Source: Candidatus Moraniibacteriota bacterium
GTDB lineage: Bacteria; Patescibacteriota; Minisyncoccia; Moranbacterales; JAPLXC01
Assembly: GCA_026396275.1 (NCBI GenBank)
Contig: JAPLXC010000007.1
Span: 37,084 to 101,083, forward strand
DNA: 64,000 nucleotides
Reading direction: 5' to 3'
Shown here: positions 6,365 to 32,571 of the stretch, piece by piece
Layout: every line of letters begins with the position of its first letter
How positions within the stretch are numbered: position 1 is the stretch's first letter
Notes under the pieces: model-generated
The model's input: the letters and a program-made list of their open reading frames with translations, nothing else
Told to the model about the DNA's origin: nothing
Databases searched by the model: none
Translations under genes and position numbers: made by a program

Positions 6365-6437
6365 AATAACAAAACTTGAAGCTTGAAACGTAAAAATAAA
6401 TTTGTTTCATGTTTTATGTTACATGTTACATGAACTA

Positions 6438-6884: not shown

Positions 6885-6955
6885 TTCACAAAACATGAAA
6901 CATGAAACATGAAACAATTAATGTTACATGTTGTATGCTACATGTTATATGACGT

Positions 6956-7408: not shown

Positions 7409-7493
7409 TAACTATCCTCGCATGCGACATATAGCATAAAACACGCAATAATGGAGAATGTTTTATGTTACATATTTCGTGTTACGTGAAAAT

Positions 7494-7700: not shown

Positions 7701-7772
7701 AATCATGAAACATAAAACACGAAACATGTAACAATAAGTTACAAATGTTTTATGTTGTATGCTACATGGAAT

Positions 7773-8330
7773 ATGTTGGGTATTTCTGAAATCAAAACCG
7801 GAAAAAACATTGTCCTAGACGGCGAGCCATACGCTGTGCTTTATCACGAACATTCCAAAATCGGGCGAGCCGGAGCGGTACTGCGCACTAAAATAAAAAA
7901 TCTGGTGACCGGCGCAGTACTTGAAAAAACTTTCCAAGGAGCAGATAAAGTTGAAGAGGCGGACATTAGCAAATCCAAAGCGCAGTATTTATATAGAGAA
8001 GGAAATAGTTATTTTTTTATGGATACTGAAAGTTATGATCAATTTTCATTGCCGGATAAAGTATTGGAAAACGCAGTAAATTACCTCATTGAAGGAACCG
8101 AAGTTACCATTCTCAATTTCAACGAAAATTCCATAAATGCGGAACTGCCGATAAAAATGAAACTGAAAGTTGTCGATGCTCCGCCGGGAATCAAAGGCGA
8201 CACAGCTTCCTCGGGCGGAAAATCAGTAACCGTGGAGACGGGAATGAAAGTAACCACTCCTCTTTTTGTTAAGGCCGGTGATGAAATAATAGTAAACACT
8301 GAAACGGGAGAATATGTCTCCCGGGCATGA
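7773..8330 (+). CDS. efp: elongation factor P (Arg-type loop: SKIGRAGA)
   Basis: KTGKNIVLDGEPYAVL...three-domain length; Arg at the position equivalent to E. coli Lys34. Confidence 0.9.
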   Translation: MLGISEIKTGKNIVLDGEPYAVLYHEHSKIGRAGAVLRTKIKNLVTGAVLEKTFQGADKVEEADISKSKAQYLYREGNSYFFMDTESYDQFSLPDKVLENAVNYLIEGTEVTILNFNENSINAELPIKMKLKVVDAPPGIKGDTASSGGKSVTVETGMKVTTPLFVKAGDEIIVNTETGEYVSRA

Positions 8331-14903: not shown

Positions 14904-15039
14904 ATTTGCATTATAACACTAAAAATACTTGTCCGCCCTCTACTCAAAGAGGATAAATTAGGCGGAAAACCCAGCCCCGGAGAAGCTGGAAAACATCACA
15001 TTAATTTACCCACGCACCAGAAAGCCCCGGACGTCAGTC

Positions 15040-15170
15040 CAGGGATGAATGACAAAAGCCCGAAAGGCTTTCGGTACGGGGTTCCGCTCCACGGAACTCC
15101 GAACAGAAAGAAACCACGGGCGTAAGCCCGTGGAGCTTCACTTGACGAATTAATGACAAAGTACTATGCT
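15040..15170 (+). ncRNA. candidate structured RNA / cis-regulatory leader (GC-rich, GNRA-type hairpins) upstream of 15227..15460
   Basis: aaagcccgaaaggcttt hairpin, ccacgggc-gtaa-gcccgtgg GNRA hairpin, and ctccacgg (15087-15094) can alternatively pair with ccgtggag (15128-15135); GC-rich island in AT-rich genome. Confidence 0.35.
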
Positions 15171-15226: not shown

Positions 15227-15460
15227 ATGGGATCCGGTCCGGAAAGACATCACAAAATTGATCTCATAGAAGATCTGGAAAAAGTTTACAAAGAGAAAGG
15301 AAGAATTCCGAGAGCTACCGACCTTATGGAAGCTCATCAAAAAGGAAAGTGTGTTTCTTACACCGTGTATTGCCGCAGGTTCGGAAACTTTAAAAATGCC
15401 ATTAGACAATTGGAGAAAAAACTGGGAAGAAACCCTTCCGATCAAGCAAAACTGTTTTAA
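15227..15460 (+). CDS. small protein with homing-endonuclease-associated-repeat-like motif (YCRRFGNFKNAIRQL)
   Basis: Strong SD aggaggt 6 nt upstream; 77 aa. Confidence 0.45.
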   Translation: MGSGPERHHKIDLIEDLEKVYKEKGRIPRATDLMEAHQKGKCVSYTVYCRRFGNFKNAIRQLEKKLGRNPSDQAKLF

Positions 15461-17505: not shown

Positions 17506-17958
17506 TCACCAAACAACCGCCCATAATTCTCCGTCCGTAGAGAAAATGAATTGGTTATATTCTGGCTCTGTTTTTAAGAGGACTCTTTCTAACCAAGGAG
17601 TTTTACATGTTTGTGAAACTTGCTTGATTAAGCTATGCGCTTTTTTATGGTTCGTGCGAAGCGCATGTAGTCTCAAATCGAAACCCAAAGATCCGTCTTT
17701 CATGCGATAGGCTCCACTAGTGCCGAAAAAACCAACATTTGGAATGCCATCGCTCAAGCGCTGTAAAAAAATCCTGACAGCCTCAATATGCTGTGCTGGT
17801 ACTTTCCCTATAAAATTATAGGGCTTTTCATAGTGAAAGAAACGAGTTTTTCTTTTTTTCATCCGTACTCTTTCTATCTTTTTTTTCGGCATTCTTACCT
17901 CCTTTTTTAACATTCTCCGACCAGTTCTTTTAGAACTTGCGTATAAACTTCCAGCCAT
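17506..17958 (-). CDS. hypothetical protein (basic N-terminus; start uncertain)
   Basis: 150 aa ORF; GIPNVGFFGTSGAYRMKDGSLGFDL region; overlaps the upstream small gene so real start is probably an internal Met. Confidence 0.4.
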   Translation of the reverse strand: MAGSLYASSKRTGRRMLKKEVRMPKKKIERVRMKKRKTRFFHYEKPYNFIGKVPAQHIEAVRIFLQRLSDGIPNVGFFGTSGAYRMKDGSLGFDLRLHALRTNHKKAHSLIKQVSQTCKTPWLERVLLKTEPEYNQFIFSTDGELWAVVW

Positions 17959-18044
17959 TTTTCATTAAAATTACCCCCTGTTTCCTTATAATATTCTTCG
18001 GCTTCTCGGTCTGCAATATGTGCGGCTCTTTCAACTATATTATG
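17907..18044 (-). CDS. hypothetical 45-aa protein (GTG start with perfect SD AAGGAGGG)
   Basis: ORF-track 66-aa ORF contains its own SD inside; GTG 5 nt downstream of the SD is the likely start; promoter-like TTGACA-17-TATGTT with a 9-bp perfect palindrome (acatagcat/atgctatgt) in the spacer. Confidence 0.3.
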   Translation of the reverse strand, partial: HNIVERAAHIADREAEEYYKETGGNFNEKWLEVYTQVLKELVGEC

Positions 18045-18183
18045 TGTGTGATGTTTCACTAATTCCCTCCTTCTTTTTTTAATGTTCTGAATAAAATAAC
18101 ATAGCATGAAGCTATGCTATTGTCAATATCTTGCTTAGAGAGATTATCGAGGTTCAACCTCGATAGGAAATACTCTGAAGGGC

Positions 18184-18645: not shown

Positions 18646-18841
18646 ACTTATTTTTTTATAAATAAAAAATAACTTATATATATATTATCACAACCGTTTA
18701 GTGATTATTACTCATCTGCTCCGAACGCTGAACGCCTGTCCGCCTTTGGCGGAAAATCTTTACCCCTTAGTGCCCCGCCACAGCGGGACTACTACTGGGG
18801 TTTCCACCGCCGCCGAATTCCTGCCTGCCGGCAGGCAGGTT

Positions 18842-19423
18842 TTACCCCAAAACAACTTTCAACAGTTCCGGAAATTCTTCTGTTCCCATATCACCCAATG
18901 TATAATGCCCCTTACTCTTAAGCTCAATTATTTTGCCATCTAAAACCTTATGGTAAATTTGAAGGCTTTTTTTGCCATCCTCTTCCTCGTCATCAGCGGT
19001 AAACATGATAATCTCTCCAATCCTATCTTTAATTTTCTCGTCTATTGGATAGACATAGAAAGCTTCCCTAAATTTATCGCCCGCGTCAGGAATTTTCCAG
19101 GGAGCTACCAGTATTAATTTTCTTATTTTCTGTCTTGTTTCACCCAGCCAGCGCACCAAAAAAGCACATCCGCAACTATGTCCAATTAAAATCGTATTTT
19201 CCGTAACTTCATATTTTTCAAATTCTTTTTTGAATTTTTCATAATCCGGCGCCCAGGGTTCAGGCAAAAGCGGAGTTTCTGTCTTTATTCCTTTGGCAAT
19301 TAATTTTTCCTTAATCCACGGAATCCAATGTTTGTCATATGTCCGCGTCTGCGGATCCATTGCTTTCTCTTTGTCCGAGGGACACCCATGAATTATTATG
19401 CAATTTATTTGTGACTGATCCAT
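18842..19423 (-). CDS. alpha/beta hydrolase, YdeN/RBBP9-like serine hydrolase family
   Basis: IIIHGCPS ... LIGHSCGC nucleophile elbow, about 190 aa typical of the family. Confidence 0.6.
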   Translation of the reverse strand: MDQSQINCIIIHGCPSDKEKAMDPQTRTYDKHWIPWIKEKLIAKGIKTETPLLPEPWAPDYEKFKKEFEKYEVTENTILIGHSCGCAFLVRWLGETRQKIRKLILVAPWKIPDAGDKFREAFYVYPIDEKIKDRIGEIIMFTADDEEEDGKKSLQIYHKVLDGKIIELKSKGHYTLGDMGTEEFPELLKVVLG

Positions 19424-19506
19424 ATAATAAAGTTGAGGTAAGCTTGTCCCGTGATCCGCCGCGGATTTTACGGGGTAATTAATTACGTAATTCTGAATAT
19501 TACACT

Positions 19507-19534
19507 ATCCTTAAATTCTCAAGTATTTAAGGAT
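19507..19534. promoter_or_regulatory. 28-bp inverted repeat atccttaaattctcaagtatttaaggat (copy 1, downstream of ArsR gene / upstream side of the hydrolase gene)
   Basis: 10-N8-10 palindrome, exact second copy at 19843..19870. Confidence 0.6.
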
Positions 19535-19538
19535 GGTG

Positions 19539-19844
19539 TTATTCTGTCTGGAATGTTTTTAAGAATCGGACGAACATTTTACCATAAGGCGACAGGGCGT
19601 GCTCCACAAAATTGCCGCGATATTTTTTGTTAATAAGCCCCGCCTGATAAAGTCTTCTGGTATGCTCGCTGATTGTTTTCTCATTGGCTTTCAGTTTTTT
19701 AACTATATTATCAAGTGTAATGTCTTTTTGTTCATCTATTAGTAGCAATATATCAATGCGGTGATGGTTGGCCATTCCTTTCAAGTGCCGCTCCATTTGT
19801 TTTGCCGTTTTGATTTTCCTCATATTAACATTATACACAACCAT
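19539..19844 (-). CDS. ArsR/SmtB family transcriptional regulator
   Basis: RIDILLLIDEQKDITLDNIVKKLKANEKTISEHTRRLYQAGLINKK winged-helix signature. Confidence 0.7.
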   Translation of the reverse strand: MVVYNVNMRKIKTAKQMERHLKGMANHHRIDILLLIDEQKDITLDNIVKKLKANEKTISEHTRRLYQAGLINKKYRGNFVEHALSPYGKMFVRFLKTFQTE

Positions 19845-19870
19845 CCTTAAATTCTCAAGTATTTAAGGAT
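19843..19870. promoter_or_regulatory. 28-bp inverted repeat (copy 2) overlapping ArsR start region: candidate autoregulatory operator
   Basis: Identical to 19507..19534. Confidence 0.6.
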
Positions 19871-20062
19871 AGTTTAGTAGTTAGGTGTTTCTTGAAAACT
19901 CCTATTCAACCCAATCCCAATGCCCAAAGGCAAAATCAAAACTCCGGCAAGGATGATTATAGATTTTTTGGAGATGAACATGAACGAAATTTATTTATTA
20001 TATTTGTGCCAGCGACTTGTCCCGAGTTTATTGAGGGAAGCTGGCGCGCCGCTTTCATATTT

Positions 20063-20434
20063 CTAATTTATCACGCCTCTGCAATTTTTACTGCCGCATT
20101 TGCATTTAAAAGAAACCAAACTACCTTTTCCGTAATCAGAAGTTATTTCCTCACCTTTCTTAATGTCTCTAACGGCGACATCGCAATAGTTTTTTACTCG
20201 CGTGTTTGGTTCGCAAGAATGATTAACAAATTTTTCAGGCGATTGCATTAATAAATATTTATTCCTTCCGGCTTTATAAATATAATGTCTTTGGCCATTT
20301 CTTAACTTTTCAATTTCTGATTTTCCCAAAAATTTTGGGGTCCACTTTAAAACAATTTCGCCTTTCTTGAAATTTCTTGCGGCAAATACACCTTTCTTTT
20401 CGATTTTCGACTTTTTTACTATTATGTTTTTCAT
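20063..20434 (-). CDS. SET domain protein (putative protein lysine methyltransferase)
   Basis: FVNHSCEPNT, GEEITSDYG and post-SET CKCGSKNCRG cysteine cluster. Confidence 0.8.
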   Translation of the reverse strand: MKNIIVKKSKIEKKGVFAARNFKKGEIVLKWTPKFLGKSEIEKLRNGQRHYIYKAGRNKYLLMQSPEKFVNHSCEPNTRVKNYCDVAVRDIKKGEEITSDYGKGSLVSFKCKCGSKNCRGVIN

Positions 20435-20584
20435 TCAAAATTTTTGAGATAAGCTTACCCCGCCTGCCCCGTAGGGAAACTTTGTTTCTCCTTTGGGGTA
20501 GTGAGTCCCTGACTCTACTACTGGGATTATACCACCAAAATAAAAACCGGCCTCATTGCGAGAGCCGGTATAGAAACCGCGAGA

Positions 20585-20869
20585 TTAAAATAGTTTTTCC
20601 TGAATATATTTGATTTTAATGGCTTTTTTCTTTCTCTTTTTCGGCGCGTGACTTTTTTGAATTCGCAGATTGTCTGCTTGTTCAATGGTAGTGCCTTTTC
20701 CGTACTTTCTCGCGGCCATCCTTTTGGCATAAGCGATTGCCATATTTTTCGCCGCCGCTGGAAAATAAGCTTCAAAGATTTTGTTGATAAAGAACTGGTC
20801 GGTTATAAGGATTCCGAGCTTATTGTGCGCTTCAAATCTTCCCGAAGCTTTATAATACTCTGTCTTCAC
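20585..20869 (-). CDS. hypothetical basic protein (GTG start, SD ggagaaagg)
   Basis: 94 aa; C-terminal KKRKKKAIKIKY. Confidence 0.35.
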   Translation of the reverse strand: MKTEYYKASGRFEAHNKLGILITDQFFINKIFEAYFPAAAKNMAIAYAKRMAARKYGKGTTIEQADNLRIQKSHAPKKRKKKAIKIKYIQEKLF

Positions 20870-20891
20870 ATCCTTTCTCCTTTCCTTCTGA

Positions 20892-21389
20892 TTAATTTCT
20901 TGAGCGCCACTCGTTTTCTATGGCCTCTATCTTCGCTTTCTCCTCGCCTAAAATTTGCTTCAGCTTGGTAGGATCATTGGAATAAGTCGGACGTCCGGGA
21001 GTGTTCTCCAGAGTAAACACATTGTCATTATTGGCCGGGAAGGAATCAGCTGCTCCGCCGCCAATAAGAGTGGGGATGCGATTAACAATTCTTAAACCGC
21101 ATTCTGTAGCAACTTTTTCCATAAGATGAGACTTTTCCTTAGGAATGCTTATCATAATCCAGATAATCTCCTCCCACTTAAACGCTTTTAATAAAAACTC
21201 GTCGTTGCTGGGCGTACCGGGGATAAAGTAAGTGTATTCAAGCTTTACTGAGCAGAGCATTACTCCCGGGTGCGGCGGCTTAACCATTCCAACATAATGA
21301 ATATACTTTGAATCCCTGACAAATTTTTTGAGGGATTCATAACTTTTCCCATGATCCATCCTGCCATATCTTTCTCTGCTATTTTCCAT
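20892..21389 (-). CDS. hypothetical protein
   Basis: 165 aa; no family recognised. Confidence 0.4.
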   Translation of the reverse strand: MENSRERYGRMDHGKSYESLKKFVRDSKYIHYVGMVKPPHPGVMLCSVKLEYTYFIPGTPSNDEFLLKAFKWEEIIWIMISIPKEKSHLMEKVATECGLRIVNRIPTLIGGGAADSFPANNDNVFTLENTPGRPTYSNDPTKLKQILGEEKAKIEAIENEWRSRN

Positions 21390-21704
21390 TATCTCCTCCT
21401 TTACAATCCCTCAATGTTTATGGTTTATTGTTAATAAAAAGAACTGGTGCTTAATCTTAGCGCAGTTTACCATTTTGTCAAATAAAAACCAGCCGCTTGG
21501 GGCTGATGGGAAGGTAAGCCTGCCCCGAAGTGAGCCCTGCTCTACTTCTGGGGTTTACCCCGTACCGCCTTACTGGTGCGTGGGTAATTTTTATCCGCCT
21601 TTGGCGGAAATTACGTAATTTTCCAGCCGCCGAATTTCGTGCCAGCAAAGCTGCCGCGCCGCCCAAGATTAATGCAATTTCTCCTAATTTTCTTGTTGGC
21701 CAAG

Positions 21705-22556
21705 TCATAGATTATTTTGCCTTACAATTTCATCGATTCTAGCCTTACTTTTTTTTCTTGTTTCATTTATTTCTTCTTCAAGCTTTTTCATTTCAATAGA
21801 TATTTCATTAGTTAAATTATGAGGATATTTAGCCGCTGCTATCAAATGAACGATTTTAGTAAAAATCGGCTTTTCTTTCATTAATATCCTAGTTTTTACA
21901 ACAATCTTTTTATTTTCACTTTCAAGATCTTCCAAGAAAACTTTTAGCTCTGCTACTTTTTTTATTAAAATCTCAATGTTTATTTTATAAGTTTCAAAAT
22001 CAATATGTTTTTGAATAAATGCTTTTTTTATTTCGCTATAAAATCTATTCGTAGAATTAATCGATCCATTCATTTTATCTACGCTTGTTTCAAAAGAAAA
22101 AACTTCGTTGACTAAATCTAAATTCATTAGATCTACGGATATTTCTTCGTCTAAAGCAAATTCATGTAGAACATTAAAATAAACAAATGGCCTGTTATAT
22201 TCTATTGCGTCTTGGGCAATATTAATGAAATCATCAATTATAAAGATGTTGTCGGAGATGACATTCAAATATCGATTGCAAATTCTTTCAATCTTTACAA
22301 GGGCATTGTAATGCTTAACTTGTCTATCATAAATTCTGGTGAGTGCATCTGCAAGTCTTATAAACAAGAAAGCGAAAAACGCCCCCATGAAAGCACTTAT
22401 TGCGCTGTTGATATATCTGATGTCATTAGAAATGAAGATTTTATTAAAAATAAAAAATCCAAAAACAAATATAAATGAACAAATTAAAGTTAAAAGCAAA
22501 AGTGGATATGTTTTTTTAATACATTCTCTTAATTTTTTTGTTGGCCAGTTATTCAT
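21705..22556 (-). CDS. hypothetical membrane protein with cytoplasmic coiled-coil domain
   Basis: Two N-terminal TM helices then long helical/coiled-coil region; very AT-rich; start overlaps stop of RusA-like gene. Confidence 0.5.
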   Translation of the reverse strand: MNNWPTKKLRECIKKTYPLLLLTLICSFIFVFGFFIFNKIFISNDIRYINSAISAFMGAFFAFLFIRLADALTRIYDRQVKHYNALVKIERICNRYLNVISDNIFIIDDFINIAQDAIEYNRPFVYFNVLHEFALDEEISVDLMNLDLVNEVFSFETSVDKMNGSINSTNRFYSEIKKAFIQKHIDFETYKINIEILIKKVAELKVFLEDLESENKKIVVKTRILMKEKPIFTKIVHLIAAAKYPHNLTNEISIEMKKLEEEINETRKKSKARIDEIVRQNNL

Positions 22557-22557
22557 T

Positions 22558-23022
22558 TTATATCAACCTACTAATCTGCGAGGATATTCTTTTAATGATC
22601 TCTTCGTCCAGTATTTTAACAGATATACGAAAAAAACTTTCTTGTGAATTTATTATAAATGCTTTGTGAGTCCAGAGCATTTTAACTTGGGAGTCATCAA
22701 AATAAACAACCCCTTTAAGTGCATCTAGTATACATTTTGCGCGATTATCTAAATCACATTTTTTATATTCAGTACCTGAATTTATACCATGCACTATTGA
22801 GACAAGGACATTTTTATCTGTTGGAAAAATATTTACATTTTTTAATTCTTTTTTAAGATCTTCTTTTAATTCATTCTCGAATTTATGGGTACTAGCTTTT
22901 TCAATCACAATATTCTTTTCTATTTCACCGTCATACTTATAAGCTATGCTTTTAGATGGTACCAAAGTGTTACCTTGAAGATATACTATTTCTGGATTGA
23001 TAATTTCTTTAAGCTTTCTCAT
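22558..23022 (-). CDS. RusA-family crossover junction endodeoxyribonuclease (Holliday junction resolvase)
   Basis: KKCDLDNRAKCILDALKGVVYFDDSQV matches the RusA catalytic core (D-L-D-N ... LDAL ... DD); start set at internal ATG that overlaps upstream stop (aaaTGAtATG). Confidence 0.7.
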   Translation of the reverse strand: MRKLKEIINPEIVYLQGNTLVPSKSIAYKYDGEIEKNIVIEKASTHKFENELKEDLKKELKNVNIFPTDKNVLVSIVHGINSGTEYKKCDLDNRAKCILDALKGVVYFDDSQVKMLWTHKAFIINSQESFFRISVKILDEEIIKRISSQISRLI

Positions 23023-23023
23023 A

Positions 23024-23191
23024 TCATTTTTTCTTTTTCGCCAAAAATTCAACTCTCACGGATTTTGGAATAAATTTTTTTGCTCTAAAACTTACCTCCT
23101 CGCCCTTTCTAGTATAAAAAATAACTTTTACAGGTTTAGAAACTATCTTAGTCGCTTTAAACGAAATATGTTGTCTTGCTTGTTTTGGCAT
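23024..23191 (-). CDS. small basic protein (55 aa) translationally coupled to RusA-like gene
   Basis: MPKQARQHISFKATKIVSKPVKVIFYTRKGEEVSFRAKKF...; stop 1 nt before RusA ATG. Confidence 0.35.
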   Translation of the reverse strand: MPKQARQHISFKATKIVSKPVKVIFYTRKGEEVSFRAKKFIPKSVRVEFLAKKKK

Positions 23192-23349
23192 AAATTTTAT
23201 CTTAATCAAAAATAAATACTATTAATCTCCTTCATAATTTTATCCGTCTCAACCAGCACGCACTCGGCTTAAATTTTTTCTAGATTTCTCCTAAAGTTGT
23301 TTTTTTATTTCTTGTTCATAGAAAATTATATCTTCTTCATTTTCAAGAG

Positions 23350-23514
23350 CCTTTTTCAATTTCTTGAGATTCCTCGCTAAATTCTCCTACATCCTCACCA
23401 AATTCAACTTTTTGGCCATCCTCAATAAAACCATCATTTTTATCTTTCTCTTCTTGTTTTTCAGAATTCTCATCTTCAAGATCATTTTCTTGATCAATTC
23501 TCATATATTTCACA
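23350..23514 (-). CDS. small highly acidic protein (54 aa), unannotated
   Basis: MRIDQENDLEDENSEKQEEKDKNDGFIEDGQKVEFGEDVGEFSEESQEIEKGS; 15 nt downstream of the preceding membrane gene; below ORF-track cutoff. Confidence 0.3.
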
Positions 23515-23528
23515 AAGATATTATTAGC

Positions 23529-24002
23529 TTAGATTGATAAAACTAACAGTACGACACCTGCAATTAGAAAAATAATTGAAAATTTAAACCACAGAGCAAG
23601 TTCTGAAGATATTTTTTCATTATTAGTGATATCTGTTTCTAATTTTTTATTGAATTTCATTACTAATTTTTCATGAGGCCACTCGAAGCTTTTTTCTATT
23701 AGTTCTTTTAATTTTGGTCCTTGACTATATTTTTTTGACCAAATTGAACAAACAGCAAACAACAAAGAGACAGCAACTAGAAAAAAAGATTTTTTTTGAA
23801 AGCCACTAAGACATGAACTCTTACTGATTAGAAATCCCAATAAAGCAACATCTGCCACAATAATCCAATTAAGCTTATTATTAAGATAATCTATGGCTTT
23901 TTGTTGGCTATTGGAAAATTCTACAATTTTTTCATGAACAAAAAGTGTCTTGTGTAGATCGTCTTTGCTATTATTCTCTTTTTCTTCATTGTTATCCACC
24001 AT
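23529..24002 (-). CDS. hypothetical membrane protein
   Basis: 157 aa, hydrophilic N-terminus then 3-4 TM helices; AT-rich. Confidence 0.5.
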   Translation of the reverse strand: MVDNNEEKENNSKDDLHKTLFVHEKIVEFSNSQQKAIDYLNNKLNWIIVADVALLGFLISKSSCLSGFQKKSFFLVAVSLLFAVCSIWSKKYSQGPKLKELIEKSFEWPHEKLVMKFNKKLETDITNNEKISSELALWFKFSIIFLIAGVVLLVLSI

Positions 24003-24341
24003 ATTCGTTATTCTTTAAATTTAATCTATTGGCAGTCAGCGCTTATATTTCAAAATTTTAATAACTTTTTGAATCGTCTTTTCCAGATTTTTTTGAATTT
24101 CATGCTCCCGCCGCTGAATTTTCCGCCTGATATACTAATTACAGGCAGGCTGTAAATTTTGCGATAGCAATAAATACAGCCTGGTTGGGATTTATTGAGA
24201 GTGGAATACTGTACAAACCCCGGCGAGGATGATTGAAAGTTTTTTAAAATAAACGCGGGCGAAATTTGGGTTTTTTGGATTATGTAACATATGTAATTTT
24301 TCCATCAAAGTTGTATTTTTAATTTCTCTCTCTCATAATTT

Positions 24342-25622
24342 TTAATAGTCAATGTAAAACTTAGTTATTCCGAACCCCTTGTCGTCATCAAACATACCAA
24401 ACTCCCATGGATGTGATGGGTATACCTGTATATTGTTATCTTTTCGTTCAATAAATTTAAAATCACGGGGTGACTGCATGAGAAAATCTTTCTCTTCGCC
24501 GCCTGATGTAAATTGCCTTTCATAAATCGAAAGGGCATTGCACAACATTGCAAAAAGAAATGAACAGAAAATATTACCTCTCGTAATAACTCCCCTCTCT
24601 TTAAAATCATTAAAATATTTCCTGTCTGACTTATTATCAATTTTGAAATACTTTGCTGCCTCTATGCACAATGTAACTCGGAAATCCGGCTCAAGCCCAT
24701 CATCTACCTGATTTTTGTATATAAGATCGGCTTTCCTGATTATTAACTTCAAAAGTCGCATATTTGTCTCCACTCTTTCTACAAACAATCCTTCAAGAAA
24801 ACTAATTATTTGACTCTTTCTGTTTGCACCGGTCCAAACCAATTTATTATTATCCTGTCTATTGAATGAGCCTGTGAATAAATTATTACGAAAAATTTCA
24901 TCAACGAATTTATCAAGCTTTACCTTTTCAGGTTGAAAAAAGTCGAAATAATCAATGCACTTTAAATACGACTCTAAATTTTTATAGTAGTTCTCATTGG
25001 CTATAGGAACAATAACCACAAACTTTTTCTTAAAGCTGTAGGAGTGCAAAAATTGTTTCAATGTTTCCAGAAAAAACACACCCGCATCTCCTGACCTATC
25101 TATATCTTCAACAATAATAAACAGATTGCTATCAGCTTTTTCTACCTGCTCTTTTAAAATTTTCTGTATCTCATCAACTCTTCTTGCTGGAGACGTTTCG
25201 AAAAAATGATTTATGCCTTCAAGAACTGCAAATCCTGGTATTCTAGAAATAGTTTTAATTAATGTTTTTTTATCCTCATTTTGTGTTCCCTGAATTTTTT
25301 TCTCTGTTTCTGCAAAATCTTTCGGACTTATTTCCTTTGAAAAATCTAAAATAAACCCCTCCCACAAATCTTTCCTGTCTGGATATTTCCAAGCATCAAA
25401 CTCTATCCACTTTTCACCGCTTCCTCGCTCGTTCATAACTCGATTTATCATAGTGCTTTTCCCGCTTCCAAAGGGCCCAACCAAAGCAATGATTGAGGAA
25501 GTGGGAAGGGAATCTATTTTCTTAGCAAAACTGGCAACAATGTCAGAAAAACCTAGTAGATCATTGACCTTGCTATGTTCTTTTAATAATTCGTGATTTT
25601 TTACGAAACCTTGATTAGCCAT
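24342..25622 (-). CDS. KAP family P-loop NTPase
   Basis: LVGPFGSGKSTMINRV Walker A, WKYP, LFIIVEDIDRSGD Walker B-like; 426 aa; candidate sigma70 promoter TTGCAA-17-TAATAT about 35 nt upstream. Confidence 0.7.
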   Translation of the reverse strand: MANQGFVKNHELLKEHSKVNDLLGFSDIVASFAKKIDSLPTSSIIALVGPFGSGKSTMINRVMNERGSGEKWIEFDAWKYPDRKDLWEGFILDFSKEISPKDFAETEKKIQGTQNEDKKTLIKTISRIPGFAVLEGINHFFETSPARRVDEIQKILKEQVEKADSNLFIIVEDIDRSGDAGVFFLETLKQFLHSYSFKKKFVVIVPIANENYYKNLESYLKCIDYFDFFQPEKVKLDKFVDEIFRNNLFTGSFNRQDNNKLVWTGANRKSQIISFLEGLFVERVETNMRLLKLIIRKADLIYKNQVDDGLEPDFRVTLCIEAAKYFKIDNKSDRKYFNDFKERGVITRGNIFCSFLFAMLCNALSIYERQFTSGGEEKDFLMQSPRDFKFIERKDNNIQVYPSHPWEFGMFDDDKGFGITKFYIDY

Positions 25623-25745
25623 ATGATTCTATTAAACTCCCATCTCTCCGCTCATTAACTTTGGCAAAAGCAAATTGCAGAGAAATCATATCTTATATTA
25701 ATATCCACAGGGCATATTTGCAAGTATGGTATAATTAATTTAGGA

Positions 25746-25788
25746 AGAGGGCGAATATCTATCTTTTGGATAAAATATTCGCCCCTCT
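25746..25788 (-). terminator. strong hairpin terminator (13-bp perfect stem) downstream of 25790..26107
   Basis: agagggcgaatat ctatcttttggataaa atattcgcccctct. Confidence 0.55.
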
Positions 25789-25789
25789 T

Positions 25790-26107
25790 TTACTTAATCC
25801 CGCATGGGGGATTCTTCTTATTTCGGATGTCTTTTTCAATCTTCAATCGATCTTCTAGAGAATACTTATCGGTTGGCATCCATTTAACTGCGACAGAATA
25901 ACCACCGTGTTTATCCCAACATGGTTTTCTTTCATGTGTCAGCAACCTCGTTCCCGTTTCACCGGATTGTCCAACATCAATAACTGAGTATATCACATTG
26001 AGGATTACGTAAATTGCAGCTCTATCAATCTTAATCTTACCAATTTTATAAGGTCCATCGAAATTATAACCTGCGATTGTAACCATTGGACTTAATTTTC
26101 TAGCCAA
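25790..26107 (-). CDS. hypothetical protein, possible GIY-YIG-like nuclease fold
   Basis: AAIYVILNVIYSVIDVGQSGETGTRLLTHE resembles GIY...YIG...R..H pattern; weak. Confidence 0.35.
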   Translation of the reverse strand: MARKLSPMVTIAGYNFDGPYKIGKIKIDRAAIYVILNVIYSVIDVGQSGETGTRLLTHERKPCWDKHGGYSVAVKWMPTDKYSLEDRLKIEKDIRNKKNPPCGIK

Positions 26108-26238
26108 CTTTTCGGCTGGATTAATAATTATTTAAACCTTAGGGAAATACCGACCTATTTCCCATAGGCACCTGTGGATAACTTGACCTTGTTTAGGTTT
26201 TCTTTAGGTATTATAATATAAGTAGTAAAAAAGTCAAT

Positions 26239-27771
26239 ATGATCTCAAAAAGATTATCAAAAAAACAAAAGGAAGTTCTTGATTTTATTACCGCTTTTCA
26301 ACAAAAGCGCGAGTATTCCCCTTCCCTAGAAGAAATCGCTAAACATTTCAATATTGCAATTCCCACTGCTCACCAACATGTGCAGGTATTAAAAAGAAAA
26401 GGATTTATAAGCGCAAGAAAGGGGGAAAAACGATCTATCTCAGTAAAAGAAAAAGCTTCAATGGTACAAGTCCCGCTGCTTGGTGTTATTACTGCTGGCC
26501 AGCCGATTGAAGCGATAGAAAATAAAGAGACAATTGCTGTACCACAAAATAAACTCTCCCATTCCGGAGAATTTTATGCTTTACGAGTTTTGGGCAATAG
26601 CATGATTGATGAAAATATAAAAGACGGCGATATTGTTTTAGTAAAAAAACAAGAAGTTGCAGAAAATGGACAAAAAGTCGTTGCTTTAATTGATAACTAT
26701 GAAGCAACACTGAAAAAATTTTATAAGGAAAGAGGACACATTCGGTTGCAACCAGCTAATAAGAACATTGAACCAATAATTATAAAAAGGGATAGAGAAC
26801 TAACTATTCAGGGCATTGTAATAGATGTAATTAAAAATGAAGAGGAATTGCAAGCGGAAGAAATTTTAACTGCAGGAAAGGTTAAAAGACACTTAAAACT
26901 TCCTCTTAATAAAATTATTTTAGGAGACGCTGTTAGAGAATTAAGAAAATTACCGGATGAAAGTTGCGATATTATTATTATCGACCCGCCTTATAATATC
27001 GGAAAGGATTTCGGAAATAATATTGATAAAAGAGAATTAAGCGAATATATTGAATGGAGCAAAAAATGGATTAATGAATCTATAAGAGTAATGAAATCAA
27101 CTGGTACAATGTTTATTTACGGATTTAGTGAAATTTTAGCGTACTTGTCAGTTGAAATTCCTATAAATAAGCGATGGCTCATTTGGCACTATACTAACAA
27201 AAATGTTGCATCTTTAAATTTTTGGCAAAGAAGCCACGAAGCAATTATTTGCGCCTGGAAAGAAAAACCAATTTTCAACCGGGACGAAGTGAGAGAGCCA
27301 TATACTGAAGGATTTCTAAACGGCGCCGCTGGAAAAGTACGTAAAGGAACTATGGGAAGATTCAGCCGAGGTGGACAAGAAACTGTTTATAATGCACACG
27401 AAGGTGGCGCGTTACCAAGAGACGTTATAAAAATACCCGCTCTAGCAGGAGGAGCGGGAATGGTTGAAAGGTGGTTTTTATGCAAAACATGCAATGACGT
27501 TTTTGAGCCACGTGAATTAAAAAAACACCAAAATCATGAGATTATAAAACATCCGACACAAAAACCCTTGGAACTTTCAAAAAAACTTATAAAATCAGCC
27601 TCCTCAAGCAAAGAAGGCGTTATTTTGGTACCATTCGTCGGCAGCGGTTCAGAATGCGTCGCAGCCAAAGAACTTGGTAAAAATTATCTTGGTTTTGAAT
27701 TAAACCCAGATTATGTAAAGTTGGCCGAAGAGTGGTTAAAATCTACAAAGACTGCTCCTAAGTTATTTTAA
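26239..27771 (+). CDS. LexA-like repressor (wHTH + S24 peptidase) fused to N6/N4 DNA methyltransferase (beta class, DPPY then FxGxG)
   Basis: N-term: KQKEVLDFI...VPLLGVITAGQP (Ala-Gly site), GNSM catalytic Ser, VVALIDNYEATLKKF catalytic Lys; C-term: IIIDPPYNIGKDF (motif IV) and VPFVGSGSECVAAKELGKNYLGFEL (motif I). Confidence 0.85.
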   Translation: MISKRLSKKQKEVLDFITAFQQKREYSPSLEEIAKHFNIAIPTAHQHVQVLKRKGFISARKGEKRSISVKEKASMVQVPLLGVITAGQPIEAIENKETIAVPQNKLSHSGEFYALRVLGNSMIDENIKDGDIVLVKKQEVAENGQKVVALIDNYEATLKKFYKERGHIRLQPANKNIEPIIIKRDRELTIQGIVIDVIKNEEELQAEEILTAGKVKRHLKLPLNKIILGDAVRELRKLPDESCDIIIIDPPYNIGKDFGNNIDKRELSEYIEWSKKWINESIRVMKSTGTMFIYGFSEILAYLSVEIPINKRWLIWHYTNKNVASLNFWQRSHEAIICAWKEKPIFNRDEVREPYTEGFLNGAAGKVRKGTMGRFSRGGQETVYNAHEGGALPRDVIKIPALAGGAGMVERWFLCKTCNDVFEPRELKKHQNHEIIKHPTQKPLELSKKLIKSASSSKEGVILVPFVGSGSECVAAKELGKNYLGFELNPDYVKLAEEWLKSTKTAPKLF

Positions 27772-28470
27772 TTTTGAATCAATTTCTTCTTTCTTTTGTT
27801 CAAAAATGTAGGGCTCAAAAATAACAAAGCCATTCGAGAATACACGAAGCATTTTTGTGTCTAGATAGTTTTTCTTAAAAGTAAGATATGATTTTAAAAA
27901 TCCCGTCCCTCTTTTCTTTTTAGGATGCAAAATGGTTTTAAGATCAGGTACTTCATAGCGGATTGGAATTGTTATGCCCGGAATCGGCTCTTTCGGCTTA
28001 TGACTACGCCCCATTACACCACTATTTGATTTCTTCTTTACATCATAATTAATAACTAATTCCCTATATTGTACCTGAATGTCAGCCCCTTTATGATCAA
28101 GTTCCTCTGACATATTGACCGTATTTTTTCCAAATACTGACTCGGCAACATATCCTGCATGCATTTGAGTAATAAGCCCTGCCCATGTCCTATATATACG
28201 CGCCTCGATTCCTTTCTTAAAACAACTAGGACACATCCCAATTTTCTTTCGAAACTCGCTGAGTTTTTTTCTATTTTCCCTTCTATAAATATCATAGAAG
28301 GCGTTAAAATCAACAAAGTTCTTTTCATCCCAGTAAATTCGATATAACAGCTTAATAGCTTGAATATTCTTTGGCAGATTCATTTCCACTATTTTAATAG
28401 AACTATACTTTTCTCTGTAAGCACTTAGGTTAACTGTTTTCAAAAAATCACTAAATTTTTGTAGATACAT
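27763..28470 (-). CDS. putative restriction endonuclease partner (PD-(D/E)xK-like), convergent and overlapping with methyltransferase gene
   Basis: GADIQVQYRELVINYDVKKK fits D-x(n)-D-x-K; convergent 9-nt overlap with MTase 3' end as in many type II RM pairs; assignment is inferential. Confidence 0.4.
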   Translation of the reverse strand: MYLQKFSDFLKTVNLSAYREKYSSIKIVEMNLPKNIQAIKLLYRIYWDEKNFVDFNAFYDIYRRENRKKLSEFRKKIGMCPSCFKKGIEARIYRTWAGLITQMHAGYVAESVFGKNTVNMSEELDHKGADIQVQYRELVINYDVKKKSNSGVMGRSHKPKEPIPGITIPIRYEVPDLKTILHPKKKRGTGFLKSYLTFKKNYLDTKMLRVFSNGFVIFEPYIFEQKKEEIDSKLK

Positions 28471-28514
28471 ATATTTAACAAATAATTTACTTTTTCCAAT
28501 CTTTTAAATATTTC

Positions 28515-29108
28515 TTACAAATTTTTGATTTCCTCTACGATTTCCGGGAAGTGTTCTTGGTTGAAATGCTGGCGGTCTTCAAAAATATGCGCTTTAACAC
28601 TTGGTAAATCTTTCTTATATCTTTCAACTTCATTAAAAGGCACAATTGGATCATCCTTGCTTTGATACAAATGAATTATTGGGCATTGCTTTTCAACTCC
28701 TTCGAGCGATTTTTTAAAAACAAAATCACTAATCTCATGGGTTTCTGAATGTGGCGGAGCTACCAAAAAAAGAGCTTTTATTTTTTTAGGAAATTCGTTT
28801 TCAGATAAATATTTAACCAGAAAGATGCCTCCTTGCGAATGTCCGATTAAAATCGGTTCACTTTCCATAAATGGAAACATTCTTTTAAACCATATTTTCC
28901 ATTCCTCATACCTGGCATTATTTGAATTGGGCATACGGGGCGCAAGCACTTGGAATTCTCCTCCCAATTCCGATTGCAGGTGAATTTTCCAATCTTTTTT
29001 GGGCAGAAATGATTCAATCGTTACTTCCTGATTTTTAAGATCATCCAAAAATTTTTTGTACGAATCAAACGAACTTCCGCCATGTATAATAATAACTTGT
29101 TGTTTCAT
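28515..29108 (-). CDS. alpha/beta hydrolase, YdeN/RBBP9-like (second, divergent paralog)
   Basis: VIIIHGGSS ... LIGHSQGG. Confidence 0.6.
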   Translation of the reverse strand: MKQQVIIIHGGSSFDSYKKFLDDLKNQEVTIESFLPKKDWKIHLQSELGGEFQVLAPRMPNSNNARYEEWKIWFKRMFPFMESEPILIGHSQGGIFLVKYLSENEFPKKIKALFLVAPPHSETHEISDFVFKKSLEGVEKQCPIIHLYQSKDDPIVPFNEVERYKKDLPSVKAHIFEDRQHFNQEHFPEIVEEIKNL

Positions 29109-29273
29109 ACTGTAAATTTTTTACTTTCTCTAATCCCATCCTTCGCCATAAAGCTTCCACCGACGCCAAGGCTTTGGCGGACAAGTCGGAAGGACATGCC
29201 TAATTATTTACTTCTATAATCTCTAATCACCCCGTAAAATCCGCGGCGGATAACGGGGCAAGCCAACCCTCCC

Positions 29274-29293
29274 CCCAGTTAAATAATACTTCC
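29274..29293 (+). repeat. 20-nt direct repeat cccagttaaataatacttcc (copy 1)
   Basis: Exact second copy at 29905..29924; the pair brackets gene 29327..29806. Confidence 0.7.
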
Positions 29294-29326
29294 GCAAATT
29301 AGCGGGACAGGCATTCAGGGTAAAAT

Positions 29327-29806
29327 CTAAATTTGCCGGGTTTTCAGATTTTGATACTCTAAGTAAGTTAATGTTACGACAAAAATGTCCAAAATGGTTA
29401 AGACAATCAGCCAGGCAGAATGAGAAATTGAATAGCGATACATCTGGTAGAAAATAAATATTCCAAATACGGCGATTGCGAGCGGATAAGCCCACAATTT
29501 TTTTCTAAAAAGGGCGGCAATCAGAAATATTTTTATGAGCCCGTGGCTCAAGAGGAACAAACCTCCAAAAATTTGGCTGCTCACGGAAAAGCCGCGGGCC
29601 GCGTGAACCAGAAAATTGGCAAAGAGGTCTTTCGGATCCTCGCTTAATTCGTTTTGAGTAAGGAGTCTTACCAAATAGTTAAGGGTTTCAGGGCGAATGA
29701 AAAACAGCAGTATTCCGCCGATAATTTCCAAAATTCCATTCAGCCCTTTAAGAAGGATGCCGACCCGAAACGTGTCATGGATTACCTTGGCATACATTTT
29801 ATCCAT
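29327..29806 (-). CDS. hypothetical membrane protein (DUF2127-like)
   Basis: 159 aa, 4 TM helices. Confidence 0.45.
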   Translation of the reverse strand: MDKMYAKVIHDTFRVGILLKGLNGILEIIGGILLFFIRPETLNYLVRLLTQNELSEDPKDLFANFLVHAARGFSVSSQIFGGLFLLSHGLIKIFLIAALFRKKLWAYPLAIAVFGIFIFYQMYRYSISHSAWLIVLTILDIFVVTLTYLEYQNLKTRQI

Positions 29807-29904
29807 GAATAAAGTATAAATTCTTTACCGCAAAAACACCAGCCACTAACCACTTCCCAACATCGTACGCCAAGAAATAAAAACTAAGGGGCAGGCGGGG
29901 TAAA

Positions 29905-29924
29905 CCCAGTTAAATAATACTTCC
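29905..29924 (+). repeat. 20-nt direct repeat cccagttaaataatacttcc (copy 2)
   Basis: See 29274..29293. Confidence 0.7.
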
Positions 29925-32016: not shown

Positions 32017-32052
32017 ATCCTACGCCAAAAAGGCCTGGAAATCAAATAAAAA
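32017..32052 (-). promoter_or_regulatory. 36-nt exact repeat containing sigma70-like promoter on minus strand (TTGATT-17-TAGGAT), copy 1
   Basis: atcctacgccaaaaaggcctggaaatcaaataaaaa; identical copy at 32536..32571. Confidence 0.5.
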
Positions 32053-32535: not shown

Positions 32536-32571
32536 ATCCTACGCCAAAAAGGCCTGGAAATCAAATAAAAA
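32536..32571 (-). promoter_or_regulatory. 36-nt exact repeat / promoter copy 2
   Basis: Identical to 32017..32052. Confidence 0.5.

Follow-up and report, generated by a model that had tools for sequence, protein, structure and literature searches.

What are the short GC-rich repeats that lie between genes in this 64 kb stretch of a Candidatus Moranbacteria (Patescibacteria/CPR) genome? The sequence-only reading of the stretch, here called the window, proposed remnants of a repeated mobile or structured-RNA element, or recombination sites that assembled an accessory island. The census of repeats within the genome covers the window. Orthologous loci, related genes and phage contigs from elsewhere are referred to by their handles (L002 and so on).

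Palindromic units of the islets

The GC-rich islets between genes are stacks, in tandem or nested, of short (15–38 nt) palindromic units. These are called M1 (15 nt), beta (33 nt), gamma (36–38 nt), delta (a perfect 20 nt palindrome) and D-outer (a 29 nt hairpin). An asymmetric 3' tail, RCARGY, is present on the beta and gamma units and on some M1-like units. The GC content of the units is 0.57–0.80, versus 0.29–0.40 per kb over the surrounding 17–33 kb. The units in the window, in islets lettered A to G, are:

11330–11352, − strand: candidate decayed delta in the FtsK linker, encoding ...SLPGRQAGE... (similar to the L003 PorA insertion CLPTGQAGG); 13 nt exact delta match, only possibly an insertion.
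14927–14966, − strand: islet G unit 1, read from the sequence as an M1-like hairpin TCCGCC...GGCGGA with a 23 nt loop insert, then the − strand tail ACAAGT; stem and tail type as in 18739–18753 and 29154–29192; DNA fold of 14925–15000, z = −2.1.
15008–15082, − strand: islet G unit 2, a D-outer hairpin (ACCCCGTACC.../...GGTGCGTGGGT) with a long nested loop insertion; arm matching 21569–21587 inverted (19/19 nt, one mismatch, E = 5e-3).
18739–18753, no strand: M1 unit TCCGCCTTTGGCGGA, 15 nt, 6 bp stem; exact second copy at 21594–21608.
18763–18800, − strand: gamma unit CCCCAGTAGTAG[TCCCGCTGTGGCGGGG]CACTAAGGGG, whose loop holds a second, nested hairpin, in the islet A fold; homologous to 20497–20525, 21518–21553 and L003 5647–5683.
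18820–18839, no strand: delta unit, perfect 20 nt palindrome CCTGCCTGCCGGCAGGCAGG, immediately 3' of the hydrolase-1 stop codon.
19442–19474, − strand: beta unit CCCGTAAAATCCGCGGCGGATCACGGGACAAGC, 33 nt, 18 nt upstream of the hydrolase-1 ATG.
20453–20498, − strand: islet C long hairpin CCCCAAAGGAGAAAC...GTTTCCCTACGGGG, then the doubled tail CAGGC-GGGGTAAGC; fold z = −2.7; 3' half repeated on the other strand at 29884–29905 (20 nt, 95%).
20497–20525, − strand: islet C gamma unit (CCCAGTAGTAGAG-TCAGGGA-CTCACTACC), from its fold structure and a 26 nt gapped match to 21529–21552.
21518–21553, − strand: islet D gamma unit (CCCCAGAAGTAGAG-CAGGG-CTCACTTCGGGG) with tail CAGGC; dG −9.9 kcal/mol as DNA.
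21557–21585, − strand: D-outer hairpin ACCCACGCACCAGTAAGGCGGTACGGGGT, the short-loop version of 15008–15082 by the BLAST match of islets D and G; homolog at L085 5512–5542, with identical flanks AATTAC/ and /TTACCTCA.
21594–21620, no strand: second M1 (21594–21608, exact copy) adjoining the AT-rich palindrome AATTACGTAATT (21609–21620); the 20-mer ATCCGCCTTTGGCGGAAATT from this segment is identical to L064 porB 10723–10742.
29154–29192, + strand: islet E unit 1, nested hairpin CTTCCACCGA[CGCCAAGGCTTTGGCG]GACAAGTCGGAAG, M1-like, with GACAAGT tail; DNA fold z = −2.5.
29231–29263, + strand: second beta unit, 33 nt, inverted relative to 19442–19474.
29274–29312, + strand: 20-mer CCCAGTTAAATAATACTTCC (29274–29293), repeated exactly at 29905–29924, and hairpin CCGCAAATTAGCGG with matching tail GACAGGC (29292–29312), overlapping by 2 nt; the segment resembles 18728–18741 on the other strand.
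29884–29924, + strand: islet F, from repeat matches a truncated copy of the islet C hairpin 3' half (CTAAGGGGCAGGCGGGGTAAAC), then the 20-mer of islet E.

The four modules picked out previously were all found, with coordinates off by only 1–2 nt. Module CCGCCTTTGGCGGAAA is at 18740 and 21595 (+ strand), with a partial relative near 29170; CTACTWCTGGG is at 18789, 20515 and 21542, all on the + strand; and CCCCGCCTGCCCC is at 20458 (+), with an inverted copy at 29888 (−). The hairpin at 19437–19481 is inverted relative to 29224–29268, with 89% identity over 45 nt (BLAST 40 nt at 92.5%, E = 3e-12). With the 64 kb window as the search space, islet pairs give BLAST E-values of 8e-4 (A–D), 8.5e-4 (C–F), 2e-5 (E–F) and 5e-3 (D–G). 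Allowing up to 2 mismatches, TCCGCCTTTGGCGGA has 3 matches against 0.24 expected; the common 3' tail GGGRCARGC has 6 against 1.66 expected, and all 6 are in intergenic islets at 19.4–29.9 kb. The module matches are real, non-random and beyond chance. Two further links are the 20-mer CCCAGTTAAATAATACTTCC, present at both 29274 and 29905, and the inverted match of islet D at 21569–21587 to 15006–15024.

DNA folding of the islets gives z-scores of −4.2 (A), −3.75 (D), −5.4 (G, 15003–15140) and −2.7 (C), and the beta unit alone folds no better than shuffles (z = −0.9 and −0.7). Compensatory changes among gamma copies are seen in the inner stem (GAAGT/ACTTC, GTAGT/ACTAC and GTAGC/GCTAC). Nesting is illustrated by one outer stem that has a short loop at 21557–21585 and a 50 nt insert at 15008–15082.

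Confinement of the family to the island, as first proposed, holds only in part, for the clear copies within the window: an islet at 14.93–15.14 kb falls beyond the range given at that time, and the candidate decayed delta is in the linker of FtsK, near 11.33 kb. The open reading frame at 21478–21708, taken to be a mere artefact of GC content, is not purely so, as its first 24 nt duplicate the start of the adjoining gene.

Filled and empty sites at the hydrolase locus

The YdeN-like identity proposed for both hydrolases is confirmed (PF06821). At the nucleotide level, orthologs in L085 and L086 are 82% and 81% identical to the window; for the protein, L085 has 88% identity. Upstream of hydrolase-1 the window reads AATTAC/33 nt/TTACCT, and the orthologous L085 sequence is unbroken (GTAATTAAATAC/TTAC). 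In L086 the 5' palindrome (ACGTAATTAATTAT) is kept and runs directly into the ATG, with no beta. Downstream, the window has GGGGTAAAA/20 nt delta/AATTCGGCGGCGG where L086 has GGGGTAAAAAATCCGGCGGCGG; the position of delta is an exact 20 nt gap in both L085 and L086. Relative to these two loci there is no target duplication at either the beta or the delta insertion flanking hydrolase-1, which are clean insertions. A functional tie of the hairpin to the hydrolase paralogs is not supported, since the same AT-rich sequence precedes the L085 and L086 orthologs and contains no hairpin there. Elsewhere the hydrolase-1 ortholog is found in other gene neighbourhoods, without the units.

Five beta or D-outer copies are preceded by TTAC and then followed by TTACCT. 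An AT-rich flank of about 18 nt (AATTACGTAATTAATTAC) is common to three beta/D-outer sites, a likeness that may stem from target preference, from copying that depends on homology, or from transfer of the flank along with the unit.

Copies in genes and phages elsewhere

Units are found in frame in porB and porA of other Parcubacteria, at three different sites in porB. In porB of L002 and L003, the 33 nt beta unit contributes 11 residues that PDB chains 9bt4_C and 5c4i_C, and over 50 further porB loci, lack; islet B (beta) matches the L003 insertion over 58 nt at 96.6% (E = 2.5e-23). An M1 double hairpin (30 nt), of which the M1 unit is the first half, is in frame at porB site 1 in L010 and site 2 in L064, with 29/30 nt identical, and is also carried by phage contig L084. 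Other GC-rich hairpins occupy porB site 1 of L002, L006 and L013, and L004 has a longer related insertion there. In L003, a tRNA T-arm fragment is split by a gamma unit, removal of 37 nt restoring GTCGG-TTCGATC-CCGAC.

The delta palindrome is identical in L011, and variants with 1–2 differences are present in L029, L063 and L003 porA, some of these falling outside the scan pattern. It is found in 48 stretches of IMG/VR viral contigs, giving 56 distinct sites with those of the window and L011. Up to 6 copies are present per contig, in tandem in some, and in one case delta forms the extra arm of a 92 nt phage tRNA-Met. There is no consistent target-site duplication at delta; flanking direct repeats of at least 6 nt are found at 3/56 sites, versus 1.2% in controls. 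The motifs thus have some of the ubiquity outside the island that would make them a general family: units lie far beyond it, in other Patescibacteria and in phage contigs.

Origin of the islets

Judged against orthologous empty sites, the units are shown to be insertions that recur in unrelated contexts and genomes. Their occurrence within protein-coding and tRNA genes of related bacteria and phages, together with their absence at the matching sites of close relatives, makes them look like inserted selfish DNA. The islets are probably accumulations of ultra-short (15–38 nt), GC-rich, non-autonomous palindromic insertion elements of several families (M1, beta, gamma, delta and D-outer). The sequence-only proposal of a repeated mobile element with shuffled modules is to that extent supported: the islets consist of a repeated family behaving like mobile DNA, with modules that are also nested and in tandem.

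It is unlikely that the hairpins are instead cis-acting transcript elements (intrinsic terminators, 5'-UTR regulators or RNA-stabilising stem-loops) whose similarity is due to selection for function. Their position at gene boundaries and strongly negative fold z-scores would fit this, as would the TTTT after delta on the + strand, the location of islet C after a −10-like box (TGGTATAAT) and ahead of the start of a SET-domain gene, and the terminator-like hairpin and T-run (21507–21488) that ends islet D. However, the units are in both orientations (islets A–D versus E and F) while every flanking gene is on the − strand, and the T-run of delta is on the strand without an upstream gene. Identical units are in frame in porB and porA and within tRNA genes, and the orthologous hydrolase flanks lack them. 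An Rfam search of the islets found no family at gathering or E-value thresholds, nor do the islets have a tRNA match. These orientations, in-frame copies and the Rfam result also argue against a structured-RNA gene, as proposed earlier, or a known ncRNA.

Recombination (att or attC-like) sites, or inverted repeats for assembling or inverting accessory genes as cassettes, are a quite improbable source. The small, mostly same-strand accessory genes separated by islets suggest such an arrangement; the two beta copies form a 45 nt inverted pair around 9.7 kb, and islets C and F form a second. Yet no integrase, transposase or nuclease domain, including tyrosine or serine recombinases and integron integrases, was found in the scanned ORFs of 13.4–33.2 kb, a set without the smallest (e.g. 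17907–18107). There is no integron attC match in the islets, and inspection by eye found no paired attC core sites, only a single partnerless ATTTAAC/GTTAAAT match. Identical units in unrelated core genes (porB, porA), tRNA genes and phage contigs, and the unit-free neighbourhoods of the hydrolase-1 ortholog, likewise do not fit sites that assembled the island. Descent from decayed genes, notably porB (pyruvate:ferredoxin oxidoreductase beta) fragments that are GC-rich by origin, is very improbable. Of the islet B match to L003 porB, 19 nt do correspond to codons (NYVINY) native to porB in L010 and L014, and islets D and E contain parts of the same segment. Against this, tblastn finds no further porB or porA similarity in the window, and three copies of about 60 nt in two orientations would need three independently decayed genes. 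In addition, the AT-rich flank belongs natively upstream of the hydrolase in L085 and L086, which are without the hairpin, and the presence of the hairpin in porB is itself due to a lineage-specific insertion.

The preferred explanation, palindromic insertion elements, has parallels. REP/BIME/REPIN sequences are imperfect 20–40 nt palindromes with an asymmetric conserved tail by the stem, arranged in clustered mosaics, intergenic, non-autonomous and without target duplication. The window units share the palindromes, tails, BIME-like mosaic clusters, non-autonomy and lack of duplication. REPs are essentially extragenic, genome-specific and accompanied by a RAYT gene, whereas the units here are also in coding and tRNA genes, common to distant genomes and phages, and no Y1 transposase was found. 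Miniature IS200/IS605 (PATE-type) elements move by single-strand 'peel and paste', in which a hairpin is recognised and insertion is 3' of a short specific sequence without target duplication. The hairpin, the missing duplication and the five copies after TTAC are similar; the single hairpin here differs from the two distinct PATE ends, TnpA/TnpB was not found, and the flank likeness of about 18 nt exceeds a tetranucleotide target. An IS200 TnpA query gave no match in 882 kb by tblastn, a weak search. Rickettsia palindromic elements are in frame in unrelated protein genes and in RNA genes, adding a tolerated peptide, as here, but are about 100–150 bp and encode their own conserved peptide (PMC10969869). 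The window units are 15–38 nt (5–12 codons), of different sequence families. Yeast mitochondrial GC clusters and related organelle elements, including sponge mitochondrial RHEs, are GC-rich palindromes of about 20–45 nt in AT-rich DNA, mostly intergenic but occasionally within genes, non-autonomous, transferred between genomes and subject to 'merger and shuffling' into composite clusters (Wu & Hao 2015, PMC4478555; PMC2800124). Short scattered GC-rich palindromes, occasionally within genes, and that modular pattern are seen here too. The organellar clusters typically have a putative short AG/TAG target duplication, a feature not observed for the units studied here; these have Patescibacteria or phage hosts and belong to unrelated sequence families.

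We infer element activity solely by comparison between genomes. The elements would be non-autonomous, the scanned ORFs of the window encoding no plausible mobilising enzyme. New copies would enter the genome without target-site duplication, most likely through a hairpin- or homology-guided copy-in event. Candidates for this are gene conversion or template switching between sites with common short flanks, or a single-strand HUH enzyme (IS200/IS605 or RAYT-like) acting in trans. A unit in a coding sequence would be tolerated if it adds a length divisible by three at a surface loop, and one in a tRNA gene if an extra arm is tolerated. The elements probably have no dedicated function for neighbouring genes, and individual copies may be incidental terminators or recombination substrates. 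Targets would often be A/T-rich, or the loops and flanks of resident units, and such insertion would turn intergenic spacers into GC-rich islets whose modules are tandem, nested and truncated ('shuffled').

Short palindromic units of the GC-rich islets

The intergenic GC-rich islets A to G are most simply accounted for as accumulations of palindromic insertion elements that are very small and non-autonomous. On a single strand, every islet can be read as a handful of palindromic unit types, each 15–38 nt long, with a GC content of 0.57–0.80 against 0.29–0.40 per kb across the surrounding 17–33 kb.

Table. Unit types found in the islets
M1: TCCGCC-NNN-GGCGGA; 15 nt
beta: CCCGTAAAATCCGCGGCGGATNACGGGRCAAGC; 33 nt
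gamma: CCCCAGWAGTAG...CACTWNGGGG; 36–38 nt
delta: CCTGCCTGCCGGCAGGCAGG, a perfect palindrome; 20 nt
D-outer: a hairpin; 29 nt

Positions in the window of the units and genes discussed below:
18820..18839, delta unit
18842..19423, hydrolase-1, a YdeN-like (PF06821) gene
19442..19474 (-), beta unit
21557..21585 (-), D-outer unit
28515..29108, second PF06821 hydrolase
29231..29263 (+), beta unit

Islets A and D have units arranged in tandem, and in A (a gamma unit), G (15008–15082, compared with the short form at 21557–21585) and E (29154–29192) one unit is nested in the loop of another. Tandem or nested mosaics are present in A, C, D, E and G, and islet F has one truncated copy. A common tail, RCARGY, closes the beta and gamma units as well as several M1-like ones; it follows the stem in six copies and gives the units a polarity. 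The strand on which they read forward is the minus strand in islets A–D and the plus strand in E and F, with the flanking genes all on the minus strand. The 3' tail motif GGGRCARGC was observed six times against 1.66 expected, always within islets. Folded as single-stranded DNA and compared with shuffles, islets A, D, G and C have z-scores of -4.2, -3.75, -5.4 and -2.7, respectively; the beta unit alone folds no better than its shuffles (z about -0.8). The inner stem of gamma shows compensatory changes between copies, being GAAGT/ACTTC in islet D, GTAGT/ACTAC in islet C and GTAGC/GCTAC in the related contig L003.

All of the repeat modules listed by the sequence-only reading were found, displaced by at most 1–2 nt, and their pairwise matches are well above chance for the 64-kb window. 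The hairpin pair 19442–19481 and 29224–29263 is 92.5% identical over 40 nt (E=3e-12), the 17-mer TCCGCCTTTGGCGGAAA occurs twice in the window (E=8e-4), and TTACCCCGCCTGCCCC(G/T)TAG has an inverted second copy (E=8.5e-4). Two further matches were absent from that list, an exact 20-mer repeat at 29274 and 29905 and an inverted recurrence of a 19-nt arm of islet D at 15006–15024, the latter revealing a composite islet at 14.93–15.14 kb. Confinement of the family to the island, as had been claimed, holds for the clear copies within the window, but the composite islet lies outside the range reported and a possible decayed delta is present in ftsK (11015–13324, -). This candidate palindrome, CTTGCCTGGCCGGCAGGCAGGCG at 11330–11352, falls in the linker between the motor and gamma domains of FtsK and encodes ...ESLPGRQAGEE..., which is similar to the CLPTGQAGG of the L003 PorA insertion; it hints that the unit family extends beyond the island. 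The ORF at 21478–21708 is not wholly the spurious product of GC content that it had been taken for. Its first ~10 codons (MTWPTRKLGE; 21679–21702) repeat the beginning of the neighbouring 283-aa gene (22524–22547) over 24 nt at 92%, therefore islet D also holds a short 5' gene fragment. A protein search for homologous islets, in which the query was the 76-aa ORF spanning islet D, gave no matches.

Filled and empty sites in related genomes and phages

Comparison of orthologous loci showed the units to be insertions relative to empty sites. Close orthologs of hydrolase-1 are found in other Patescibacteria contigs, with nucleotide identities of 82% in L085 and 81% in L086 and an alignment that extends into both flanks. 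Upstream of hydrolase-1 the window reads AGAATTACGTAATTAATTAC / CCCGTAAAATCCGCGGCGGATCACGGGACAAGC / TTACCTCAAC...ATG, the empty site of L085 reads TTAATTGCGTAATTAAATAC / TTACATAAAT...ATG, and ACGTAATTAATTAT is retained immediately 5' of the ATG in L086. Downstream, the window has GGGGTAAAA / delta / AATTCGGCGGCGG as against GGGGTAAAAAATCCGGCGGCGG in L086. As judged from these alignments, the beta and delta units at hydrolase-1 are exact insertions without target duplication. The contiguity of the unit flanks in relatives (window versus L086) speaks against their being an artefact of the library or of assembly. The empty sites also indicate that the AT-rich palindrome beside beta belongs to the promoter region of the hydrolase itself. 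This palindrome happens to match the porB codons for NYVINY, GTAATTAATTAC/GTACC, in L010 and L014, both of which are without the hairpin. The comparison suggests that the sites entered by the beta unit have the form ...AATTAC / (N)TACCT. A D-outer-type unit is found in L085 at a third, intergenic place between matching flanks. L089, a relative at DUF2127 from a non-CPR context, has no homologous flanks and hence cannot serve as the empty counterpart of islets E and F.

Copies are also found inside the genes of relatives. A 20-mer of the beta unit matches two CPR MAGs, in both cases within porB, the gene for the beta subunit of pyruvate:ferredoxin oxidoreductase. The insertion encodes ...NYVINY-PVKSAADHGASL-PKERK..., adding 11 residues relative to the solved PorB and oxalate oxidoreductase structures, and these residues are likewise missing from more than 50 other porB loci from metagenomes. 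Further lineage-specific in-frame insertions are present in the porB alignment, and every one folded is a GC-rich hairpin. The 30-nt double M1 hairpin TCCGCCAAAGGCGGA-TCCGCCTCRGGCGGA, encoding SAKGGSASGG, is found after LLKK in L010 and after LYEI in L064, which places the same DNA at two sites of one gene across two genomes. In L002, L006 and L013 the first site is filled by unrelated hairpins, and in L004 by a longer, related insertion outside the folded set. In-frame insertions were thus found at porB sites 1, 2 and 3 and in porA, across L002, L003, L004, L006, L010, L013 and L064. The L003 porA (6850–6900, -) carries a delta variant in frame with a 12-nt direct repeat, GCTACAGGTTGC, on both sides; as its period, 35 nt, is not divisible by three, one extra base must have restored the frame. 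Also in L003, a gamma unit interrupts the T-arm of a tRNA 3' fragment, and removal of 37 nt restores GTCGG-TTCGATC-CCGAC. The exact delta palindrome is present in the porB–tRNA-Thr spacer of L011, and variants with one or two differences are present in intergenic spacers of L029 and L063, the L063 variant being nested within another hairpin.

In the IMG/VR phage contigs, a degenerate delta pattern was found in 48 stretches, giving 56 distinct sites when the window and L011 are included. There are up to six copies per contig, some as tandem pairs. One phage contig has a double M1 hairpin in an intergenic GC islet; the beta unit gave no matches in viral contigs. Delta is found inside phage tRNA genes in L121 (2239–2330), L092 (8616), L132 (515) and L107 (339). 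One copy forms the 20-nt extra arm of a 92-nt tRNA-Met that is still called by ARAGORN, the others being in D-loop-like and T-arm-like contexts in sequences that ARAGORN no longer calls. Stop-free stretches across the phage delta copies are uninformative because those contigs are GC-rich. That delta is common to Patescibacteria MAGs and dozens of phage contigs, with GC contents of 0.33–0.70, points to phage-mediated spread. A systematic test found flanking direct repeats of at least 6 nt at only 3 of the 56 delta sites, and therefore no general target duplication. A few phage copies do have flanking repeats, and the 12-nt repeat of the L003 porA type is not consistent at other delta insertions. 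Taken across genomes, near-identical units (at least 29 of 30 nt) stand at non-homologous sites, and units nest, concatenate and are tolerated in protein loops and tRNA arms.

Island gene content and alternative origins

Two proteins, hydrolase-1 and DUF2127, match Candidatus Moranbacteria proteins at 100% identity, which places the window in a Patescibacteria (CPR) genome. The ~15–33 kb stretch has 29–40% GC and small genes, nearly all on the minus strand. These include two PF06821 hydrolases, a MarR-like regulator, a SET-domain protein, RusA, a KAP NTPase, a LexA-S24-methylase fusion with a TaqI-like nuclease, DUF2127, Fic and a MazE-like antitoxin. In the scanned ORFs adjoining the islets, neither integrase nor transposase nor nuclease domains were found, and comparison with PHROGs added nothing further for the island ORFs. 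In the fusion, a single ORF (26239–27771, +) joins LexA DNA-binding, S24 peptidase and N6/N4 DNA methylase domains and overlaps the end of the TaqI-like restriction endonuclease gene (27763–28470, -), an unusual restriction-modification architecture. The MarR-like gene (19539–19844, -) lies between two copies of the palindrome ATCCTTAAATTCTCAAGTATTTAAGGAT, at 19493–19537 and 19840–19884, which is probably its operator. A perfect 36-nt direct repeat at 32017–32052 and 32536–32571 is 93% conserved upstream of a DUF5698 gene in L085 (3941–3983); on the minus strand it reads TTGATT-17 nt-TAGGAT, which is promoter-like, and a diverged copy of its -10 part is found in islet E at 29136–29153. AT-rich arrays built on CATGAAACATG and ATGTTACATGTT, in direct and inverted copies, are present at 6355–6965, 7458–7789 and 45225–45631, one cluster being around the ORFs at 6.4–8.3 kb and the other immediately downstream of the tmRNA gene.

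One alternative is that the islets are functional RNAs or terminators. An intrinsic terminator has a GC-rich stem and, behind it, a T-run on the same strand as the gene upstream, and such hairpins do occur at 21507–21488 and ~20569–20547 (-); these are separate from the M1, beta, gamma and delta units, and the T-run of delta is on the plus strand, where there is no gene upstream. The mixed orientation of the units, their copies in coding sequences and the empty orthologous sites speak against this explanation. Derivation from a tRNA or known ncRNA, the structured-RNA origin that had also been proposed, finds no counterpart in Rfam 15 or ARAGORN, which give nothing credible in 14.8–33.5 kb and only a far-off tmRNA and tRNA-Gly in the window. 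A role for the hairpin as a hydrolase-linked regulator, drawn from its position upstream of both paralogs, was rejected, since the orthologs in L085 and L086 have no GC-rich hairpin there and in L087 and L088 the hydrolase begins directly after the preceding gene, leaving no space for one. Decayed porB genes were the first reading of the porB match and were dropped after the empty sites of L085 and L086: the window has no other porB similarity and the AT-rich flank is part of the hydrolase locus proper, so islet B need not be a porB relic.

The small same-strand genes prompted consideration of an integron cassette array. Integron attC sites have paired R''/R' cores (RYYYAAC...GTTRRRY) on either side of an imperfect palindrome, with IntI nearby. 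By eye the only attC-type core is an ATTTAAC that has no partner, seen in islets E and F, and the ORFs scanned hold no integrase; the array was rejected on these grounds. Cassette recombination sites in general, and the att sites suggested by the sequence-only reading, fare no better, as there is no recombinase in the scanned ORFs and the units lie within core genes of other genomes. The inverted beta pair and the C/F pair could still be secondary mediators of rearrangement. The reading of the modules as mobile elements is the one supported, by empty orthologous sites, gene-internal copies elsewhere and nesting.

Known palindromic elements and possible mobilisation

In REP/BIME sequences a short imperfect palindrome carries an asymmetric tail that is conserved, the copies are arranged as intergenic mosaics, and the gene for their RAYT (a Y1 HUH transposase) is flanked by REPs. 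The window units are alike in their 15–38 nt palindromes, RCARGY tail and tandem or nested mosaics. However, REPs are strictly extragenic, with many copies genome-wide, whereas these units are in frame in porB and porA of relatives and possibly in FtsK. No RAYT was found among the window ORFs scanned. MITEs differ in having the terminal inverted repeats of a parent IS and a target duplication of fixed length; the window units lack such a structure, and a search for a parent IS found none. Rickettsia palindromic elements (PMC10969869) are similarly inserted in frame in unrelated protein-coding genes, yet are ~100–150 bp with a family-specific peptide, compared with 15–38 nt here. The closest behaviour is that of the mitochondrial GC clusters, GC-rich palindromes of AT-rich DNA that undergo 'merger and shuffling' and horizontal transfer (PMC4478555). 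Both form GC-rich palindromes in AT-rich DNA, with composites here arising by nesting and tandem arrays, but the mitochondrial clusters have a di- or trinucleotide target duplication and an organellar host, where the window units have none and their hosts are Patescibacteria and phages. A literature text search gave no account of such elements in CPR/Patescibacteria, and neither full unit sequence was in the text searched.

Copying could proceed by two routes. Units may be copied in with the help of homology or the hairpin, through ectopic gene conversion or template switching, which is favoured by the ~18 nt of similar flank that beta and D-outer sites have in common. Alternatively, the units may be moved in trans by a single-strand HUH enzyme (IS200/IS605 or RAYT type), which is favoured by the recurrent TTAC beside units and by their strand polarity. 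Both would fit units that consist of a hairpin plus a tail and insert with no target duplication. A tblastn with an IS200 TnpA query, a weak search, gave no matches in 882 kb of related loci, and the window ORFs scanned showed neither Y1_Tnp nor any other transposase domain. A 77-aa ORF at 15227–15460 (+), adjoining islet G, consists of a 'homing endonuclease associated repeat' alone (PF18780, E=5.5e-9), without a nuclease domain; as a clue to the mobilising enzyme it is only a lead.

We propose tentatively, and with rather less than even confidence, that the units represent a previously undescribed class of mobile elements, GC-rich palindromes of 15–38 nt that circulate among Patescibacteria, other bacteria and their phages. 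Such elements would insert without target duplication, whether between genes, in tRNA arms or in frame in protein loops, by a mechanism or enzyme so far unconnected with elements of this kind, and would form a bacterial and phage counterpart of the mitochondrial GC clusters. If this is correct, they would be among the smallest bacterial insertion elements and the first of their kind found for the Candidate Phyla Radiation. They may have given rise to lineage-specific Gly/Ser/Ala-rich loops in PorA, PorB and perhaps FtsK, to extra tRNA arms, to spurious ORFs and GC anomalies that confuse MAG annotation, and to inverted repeats able to rearrange defence islands. The delta palindrome would be a tractable marker toward the enzyme that mobilises them.
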